A stretch of DNA of 64,000 nucleotides from Escherichia coli (GCF_001677475.2 NZ_CP015229.1); one strand, 5' to 3'. Positions 5,352 through 5,456 are shown, numbered from the stretch's first letter. Numbers and translations are program-made. The notes: generated by a model not told the origin, from the letters alone.

Positions 5352-5456
5352 AGTTGCCTGATGCGCTACGCTTATCAGGCCTACATCGTTCCTGCAATTT
5401 ATTGATTTTGCAATATTTTGTAGGTCGGATAAGGCGTTCACGCCGCATCCGGCAAA
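5352..5456. repeat. REP/BIME-like palindromic units (gcctgatgcgctacgcttatcaggcctac; taggtcggataaggcgttcacgccgcatccggca)
   Basis: Two inverted GC-rich imperfect palindromes matching the REP style, in the opgH-yceK intergenic region. Confidence 0.65.

Follow-up and report, generated by a model that had tools for sequence, protein, structure and literature searches.

The window analysed here, a stretch of 64,000 nucleotides, is colinear with the region of about 1.108–1.166 Mb of E. coli K-12 MG1655; the 42 kb compared with K-12 show 98.5% identity, and the differences are concentrated at third codon positions. Assignment of the host to E. coli rests on this colinearity and on the identity to K-12. 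Among 5426 complete E. coli genomes, the highest identity to the window is 98.7–98.8% (1.2-kb and 12-kb stretches) and, since none is closer over the regions compared, the window appears to come from a natural lineage that is not represented among them, possibly a Shigella. Repetitive extragenic palindromes are found in three gaps (Table 1), and all REP units of sites 1, 2, and 3 lie between ORFs corresponding to the K-12 gene pairs opgH/yceK, rluC/yceF, and ycfP/ndh, respectively; the gene names opgH, rluC, yceF, and ycfP given in the first-pass annotation are those of the K-12 annotation. The hairpins begin close to stop codons, i.e., the Z1 element of site 1 starts 4 nt past the opgH stop codon (5343–5345), the second unit of site 2 starts 8 nt past that of yceF (37916–37918, minus strand), and the palindrome of site 3 starts 10 nt past that of ycfP (63868–63870). 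In the RefSeq entry NC_000913.3 of K-12, no repeat features are listed for this region.

Table 1. Positions of the gaps, REP units, linkers, and associated elements in the window, with the basis of each call
Feature	Position	Strand	Sequence	Basis
Gap between opgH and yceK (tandem), contains site 1	5346–5516			ORF calls and K-12 annotation
Z1-class REP, site 1	5350–5384	-		30/30 to short-Z consensus; score 30
L linker, 35 nt, site 1	5385–5419		ATCGTTCCTGCAATTTATTGATTTTGCAATATTTT	Rfam ES036 and family consensus
Putative IHF core within L linker	5395–5407	-	AATCAATAAATTG	exact match to WATCAANNNNTTR
Y-class REP, site 1	5420–5454	+	GTAGGTCGGATAAGGCGTTCACGCCGCATCCGGCA	34/35 to Y consensus; score 33
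Intrinsic terminator of opgGH	5470–5500	+	AAAAATACCGGC-GTTAT-GCCGGTATTTTTTT	12-nt perfect inverted repeat, hairpin then U7
Gap between rluC and yceF (convergent), contains site 2	37805–37915			ORF calls and K-12 annotation
Orphan 13-nt REP fragment, site 2	37814–37826	+	ATAAGCCTGATAA	resembles GTAG-proximal part of REP
Degenerate REP, site 2	37832–37866	+		29/35 to Y; score 24 (null maximum 16)
Short linker, 13 nt, site 2	37867–37879		minus strand reads ATCGGTGCTGGCG	aligns to "l" linker of naRNA4
Y-derived REP, site 2	37880–37909	-		26/35 to Y with 3-nt gap; score 18
Gap after ycfP, upstream of ndh, contains site 3	63871 onward			ORF calls and K-12 annotation
Perfect 11-bp palindrome, site 3	63881–63912		CGCATCAGGTA-ACCTTGCCGG-TACCTGATGCG	inverted repeat, fold
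Degenerate short Z REP, site 3	63902–63929	-	TACCTGATGCGCCTCTTATCAGGCCTAC	26/30 to Z1 with 2-nt gap; Z1-like score 21 for 63904–63929 (null maximum 16)
Deletion junction, site 3	63903–63912		CCTGATGCGC	one copy of direct repeat

Descriptions of REP and BIME elements go back to 1984. Consensus strings for the classes Y, Z1, and Z2 were aligned locally to the whole window on both strands, and 30 dinucleotide-preserving shuffles served as null. The best score among the shuffles is 16–17 and is exceeded at the three named sites only, marginally so by the second unit of site 2 (18 versus a shuffle maximum of 16); no further REP above chance is present on either strand of the 64-kb window. The RNA folds of the three gaps have z values of -6.8, -4.5, and -3.3, respectively, and none of 200 shuffles folds as stably as each of them. 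The first-pass annotation, which had proposed REP-like palindromes at three intergenic sites and a comparison with the classes Y, Z1, and Z2, is therefore borne out, as the sequences are present where it had placed them and match the classes at all three sites with scores above the shuffle maxima. The GTAG/CTAC foot is kept at sites 1 and 3 (CTAC at 5381–5384, GTAG at 5420–5423, and CTAC at 63926–63929).

The class strings were anchored independently, and each was checked against published or genomic sequence. For Y, the string corresponds to the motif GCCGGATGCGGCGTGAACGCCTTATCCGGCCTAC given in PMC12306157, to the first hairpin of Rfam naRNA4, and to the Y REP oligonucleotide that was crystallised together with TnpA-REP (PMC3479197). 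For the Z classes, rayT of K-12 is described as flanked by Y and Z2 units (Ton-Hoang et al., PMC3333891; Nunvar et al., PMC2817692) and naRNA4 as a Y-l-Z2 unit (Qian et al., PMC4550694). The 5' flank of K-12 rayT consists of Y and a 37-nt long Z, TGCCTGATGCGACGCTGGCGCGTCTTATCATGCCTAC, and this long Z is also present in the Rfam naRNA4 consensus. As the sequences called Y/Z2 in these papers carry the long Z, Z2 is the long form, and the short form, TGCCTGATGCGCTACGCTTATCAGGCCTAC, is therefore Z1. The consensus of 104 short-Z copies from other genomes is identical to positions 5355–5384 of the window. In a scan of one genome per species with the pattern ATCAGGCCTAC-N25-45-GTAGGYCGGATAAGG, which yields at least 128 pairs, the short Z occurs in 117 and the long Z in 6 of the 128 long-linker pairs listed from other genomes.

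The three sites differ sharply in quality, and we read them as a canonical element, a decayed one, and a remnant. Site 1 is a canonical and complete BIME-1 (RIP/RIB), a type defined by z1 and y units, a long conserved L linker often with an IHF site, and a single copy per locus (PMC3333891). Like other members, it combines Z1 and Y in inverse orientation over an L linker of about 35 nt with an IHF core, it is situated at the 3' end of a transcription unit, and it occurs as a single copy with no tandem repetition of the unit at the locus; a structural difference from BIME-1 is not seen. The CTAC and GTAG feet oppose each other across the linker. On the plus strand, the Z1 unit reads as an iREP, TGCCTGATGCGCTACGCTTATCAGGCCTAC at 5355–5384, and its hairpin is present in the minimum-free-energy fold. 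The local details of site 1 are an extra upstream GTAG at 5350–5353, which pairs with the CTAC foot and thereby lengthens the Z1 stem, and one C-to-T exchange in the stem of the Y unit, of which the GTAG foot and the internal AA/GC mismatch are intact. In K-12, the Y unit at this site has GTGG in the place of GTAG (5420–5423 in the window), and therefore the K-12 unit is devoid of the tetranucleotide that TnpA-REP needs for in vitro binding (PMC3333891).

The linker of site 1 agrees in 28 of 35 positions with the consensus, AAGGTTTCTGCAATATATTGAATTTGCAcGATTTT, of 76 linkers of 35 nt from other genomes, the family mean being 27.8, and 35 nt is also the modal linker length (76 of the 128 pairs listed from other genomes). 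L linkers of BIME-1 frequently carry an IHF site (Ton-Hoang et al., PMC3333891), and the core occupies the same offset (position 10) in 72 of the 76 family linkers, usually with one mismatch, whereas it is exact at site 1. Exact core matches occur six times in the whole window versus 2.7 expected, so that the motif alone is weak evidence. Binding of IHF, gyrase, and Pol I to REP/BIME has been described (PMC3333891, PMC2817692), and as DNA the linker of site 1 would bind IHF. The sequence of site 1 recurs at at least 40 places per E. coli genome (median). Downstream and outside of the BIME, a strong intrinsic terminator that is identical in K-12 completes the 3' UTR of opgGH, and the symmetry of its A-run and T-run could permit termination in both directions.

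Site 2 is a decayed single Y-linker-Z unit of the BIME-2 type with its REPs head to head. Positions 37836–37908 align to the whole 77-nt model of naRNA4 (REP325; Rfam RF02564) with 48.7 bits and a local E value of 3e-8, a score below the gathering score of 59.5. In the first unit, a Z-type stem, GGCCTGAT/CTCAGGCC, encloses a Y-type centre, AAGGCGTTTACGCCGC; the arms of this unit form a 15-nt inverted repeat that is 80% complementary, and it aligns to the second hairpin of naRNA4. The linker has conserved the CGGUGC core of its naRNA4 counterpart and equals in length the 13-nt linker of the BIME located 5' of rayT in K-12. The second unit aligns to the first hairpin of naRNA4 and corresponds to a Y REP minus 3 nt and the CTAC foot, forming a perfect 10-bp hairpin, GCCGGATGCG-ACGTAAC-CGCATCCGGC. 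The GTAG/CTAC feet are missing from both units, the first beginning with GTTG (37832–37835) and the second ending in ...CCGGCGCAA, and recognition of site 2 by a RAYT is therefore unlikely. In contrast to the tandem arrays of BIME-2, site 2 has a single unit, and its REPs are Y-derived or Y/Z hybrids, neither being a true Z2. Site 2 is laid out like a BIME-2 unit without being classed as one, and its two units are best called REP-derived relics.

Upstream of this pair, the 13-nt fragment ATAAGCCTGATAA has two mismatches to TTATCMGGCCTAC on the minus strand and, taken alone, is not above chance. The first-pass annotation had placed the cluster between rluC and yceF at 37817–37903; the REP pair is indeed there, but the start lies inside this fragment, which explains the earlier start coordinate. 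In O157:H7 genomes (hits H153 and H154), the segment matching the rluC–yceF query is 410 bp long versus 421 bp, i.e., 11 bp shorter, at 94.8% identity, which suggests a further small deletion in the REP relic of these strains. By megablast, which needs an exact word of 28 nt, the queries for sites 2 and 3 find a median of one place per genome.

Site 3 is what a 69-bp deletion between two CCTGATGCG repeats has left of a Y-linker-Z unit. The perfect palindrome seems to consist of two opposing REP heads. Its right arm is at the same time the left arm of a degenerate short Z REP that has kept its CTAC foot and lost the inner stem. The palindrome is invariant in all eight E. coli haplotypes compared, and E. 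albertii shows two substitutions, only one of them within the 32 nt. The deletion was mapped by alignment to K-12, EC958, OW1E2, 2015C-3905, and EC0026B. At site 3, K-12, EC958, and OW1E2 carry 69 bp more than the window, comprising a Y REP, a 12-nt linker, and a Z head, and some strains carry another 8 bp inside the Z unit. In the long allele, CCTGATGCGC occurs twice, flanking the Y REP and the 12-nt linker. The ancestral long allele, likewise one unit and no tandem array, with head-to-head REPs over the 12-nt linker, aligns to the 77-nt naRNA4 model, and its K-12 version matches with 56.5 bits, below the gathering score of 59.5; the allele of the window has lost the Y unit entirely and gives no Rfam match. 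Since the long form is also that of the outgroup, E. albertii, the short allele of the window is a derived deletion.

A query spanning the junction finds the short allele in 262 of the 5426 genomes (4.8%). Of 60 records sampled evenly over the ranking, 24 have the K-12 length at site 3, 3 have the additional 8 bp, and 3 are short, 29 diverge past the palindrome, and 1 matches the first 64% of the query only. The ycfP–ndh locus is thus highly polymorphic. GF4-3 is the only genome with an identical junction and is 98.2% identical to the window over 6.1 kb. None of the three short haplotypes examined (window, GF4-3, and 2009C-3133) is closer to another short haplotype than to its nearest long one, which, in a small sample, hints at recurrence or recombination. 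The "cluster" after ycfP (63871–63945) reported in the first-pass annotation is REP-derived, but the term overstates what is a palindrome and one degenerate REP.

Taken together, sites 1 to 3 belong very probably to the enterobacterial REP/BIME family, are located in untranslated gaps just after genes, and would act in 3' UTRs. From what is published for the family, the REP units would be transcribed within the 3' UTRs of the upstream genes, where their hairpins would stop 3'-to-5' exonucleases and in part lower read-through into yceK and ndh. In addition, translation of the upstream gene may be dampened, since the hairpins begin 4–10 nt after the stop codons. REPs located at most 15 nt from a stop codon have been linked to translational control (PMC12306157), and the hairpins at opgH, yceF, and ycfP are all within this distance. 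In a recent study, REPs are described as mRNA stabilisers and partly Rho-dependent attenuators with local and context-dependent action, tandem gene pairs with a REP between them show upstream-biased expression, and about 40% of the E. coli REPs are found between tandem and about 60% between convergent genes (bioRxiv 10.64898/2026.03.23.713779). The same study reports a large context-dependent variance, terminal REPs being without a general effect on mRNA half-life, and treats the nucleoid-condensing role once claimed for naRNA4 as since disputed (bioRxiv 10.64898/2026.03.23.713779). At site 1, the terminator alone could supply protection of the 3' end, and the hairpins of sites 2 and 3 could persist as neutral relics.

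With regard to their origin, the elements probably arose as non-autonomous DNA spread by a REP-associated tyrosine transposase (RAYT) and would now be immobile residents at these loci. The doublet of site 1 with its intact GTAG, an inverted pair of REPs with a spacer as in REPINs, fits such a RAYT-dependent origin (PMC3333891, PMC2817692). That the elements are instead REPIN-like units still being moved by a RAYT is unlikely. GTAG and stem mismatch at site 1 are what TnpA-REP requires in vitro (PMC3333891), the change in copy number at site 3 has its end-points in REP heads, and the haplotypes bearing the short allele are not the nearest neighbours of one another. However, site 1 is present at the same locus, as a single aligned piece, in 5391 of the 5426 complete E. 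coli genomes and site 2 is conserved in 5418 of them, and this fixation across E. coli argues against present mobility at these loci, with site 1 showing no signs of recent movement. What happened at site 3, a simple loss of the sequence between two 10-bp direct repeats, can be explained by replication slippage, and short-tract recombination could spread one deletion to several haplotypes. Furthermore, no RAYT gene is found in the 64-kb window (best tblastn E value with K-12 RayT, 0.49), the K-12 gene being located at 247.6 kb, outside of the syntenic region. The claim of the first-pass annotation that these REPs are ordinary punctuation of the core genome holds, and sites 1 and 2 are present in more than 99% of the 5426 genomes.

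For site 1, one might consider that the minus strand of the linker encodes the sRNA ES036 (CssrF), antisense to the 3' UTR of opgH, since positions 5377–5419 of the minus strand match the full 43-nt model of Rfam RF02751 with 42.2 bits, against a gathering score of 37.6. We judge this improbable. The model coincides with the L motif of the BIME-1 linker plus a REP foot, and the same motif recurs at numerous loci within a genome and across several genera, so that the match shows membership in a repeat family, not a gene, and is silent on sRNA expression at this locus. Also, there is no sigma-70-like promoter on either strand between 5200 and 5700, and a full-text search under the name ES036/CssrF found no relevant literature. 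For site 3, REP copy number might act as a strain-specific expression dial, recurrent loss of the 69 bp with the Y unit, by RAYT or by slippage, altering read-through into ndh or stability of the ycfP mRNA; this idea is similarly improbable.

It is very improbable that the palindromes are plain terminators or generic 3'-end hairpins outside of the REP family. All of them sit just past stop codons, those at 37881–37907 and 63881–63912 are perfect stems without most of the REP body, and similar GCCGGATG...CATCCGGC hairpins occur at 7564–7590 and 9806–9826. However, none of the REP hairpins of sites 1 to 3 runs into a U-run. A U-run is seen for the separate element at 5470–5500, the canonical terminator that site 1 has downstream. 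Class matches of 30/30 and 34/35, the L linker, and the matches to ES036 and naRNA4 indicate a repeat family, and for site 1 the plain-terminator reading is refuted by the missing U-run and the consensus matches. Finally, decamers of the REP head also occur within genes (e.g., at 41391 and 53183) about as often as expected by chance, and fabH contains a Z2 match at 41335 whose score of 15 is at chance level (shuffle maximum 16–17). That the matches at the three sites are chance GC-rich palindromes is refuted, with practically no probability left, by scores of 18–33 that exceed every shuffle (maxima 16–17), by folds more stable than 200 of 200 shuffles, and by the conservation of the elements at the same positions in K-12.

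Other repeats and RNA elements were seen in the window. The flgF–flgG gap (about 26497–26606) constitutes a fourth intergenic repeat site, containing at 26540–26575 a BoxC/PIT/TMECO intrastrand-triplex repeat, CCCTCGCCCCTTTGGGGAGAGGGTTAGGGTGAGGGG, which is identical to the K-12 TMECO copies 7, 11, and 15 (Table 1 of PMC4666352). In the same gap of K-12, a degenerate Z1-L-Y element resembling BIME-1 replaces BoxC, so that one repeat family is swapped for another between strains; the allele of the window is present in 1943 of the 5426 complete E. coli genomes, and in the sampled rows nearly all others are K-12-like. The hairpins at 7564–7590, just past the lpxL stop codon (minus strand), and at 9806–9826, in the convergent trhO/yceI gap, have the REP stem GCCGGATG...CATCCGGC without REP body or GTAG/CTAC, and together with 37881–37907 three such REP-stem hairpins are observed versus 0 expected by chance. 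Above their gathering scores and at the positions expected from K-12, Rfam detects the RNase E 5' UTR element rne5 (36297–36633, minus strand), the sRNA SraB (38494–38662, plus strand), and the PyrC leader (14550–14599, minus strand).

The elements described here are ordinary members of the REP/BIME family and consistent with its published description. The exact Z1-L-Y layout of site 1 is also found, among the matches listed, in E. albertii, E. whittamii, Citrobacter, Pseudocitrobacter, Kosakonia, Pluralibacter, and Superficieibacter, with at least 30 loci in E. albertii and at least 41 in Pseudocitrobacter. These figures stem from a scan of one genome per species, which gives no copy counts per genome, and the list of genera is a lower bound. 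E. albertii has four tandem Z1-L-Y units with a period of 147–148 bp (L013, 6976–7478), and three tandem units occur in Kosakonia cowanii (period 110–113 bp; L041, 2553–2834) and in Pseudocitrobacter faecalis (period 112 bp; L082, 8823–9104), in contrast to the description of BIME-1 as single-copy (PMC3333891). Exact enterobacterial Z-L-Y pairs also appear in contigs of 262–720 bp assigned to the Firmicutes Desulfosporosinus sp. OT (L105) and Alkalicoccobacillus porphyridii (L120 and L121), the two Alkalicoccobacillus contigs having about 1x coverage according to their names; such pairs in assemblies of unrelated organisms most likely represent contamination.

Since Z1-L-Y occurs in several genera, the REP class types a group of genera and not a species. 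The proposal of the first-pass annotation that these REPs type the host as E. coli-like is thus weakly true, holding for a group of genera of the Enterobacteriaceae but not at the species level, and REP class alone should not serve to call a host E. coli. The finding is of little significance beyond this, and its value consists mainly in the annotation of three sites, namely a BIME-1 with a putative IHF site after opgH, a REP relic pair between rluC and yceF, and a deletion allele of a polymorphic BIME after ycfP. The ycfP–ndh and flgF–flgG gaps are possible length or sequence polymorphisms for strain typing.
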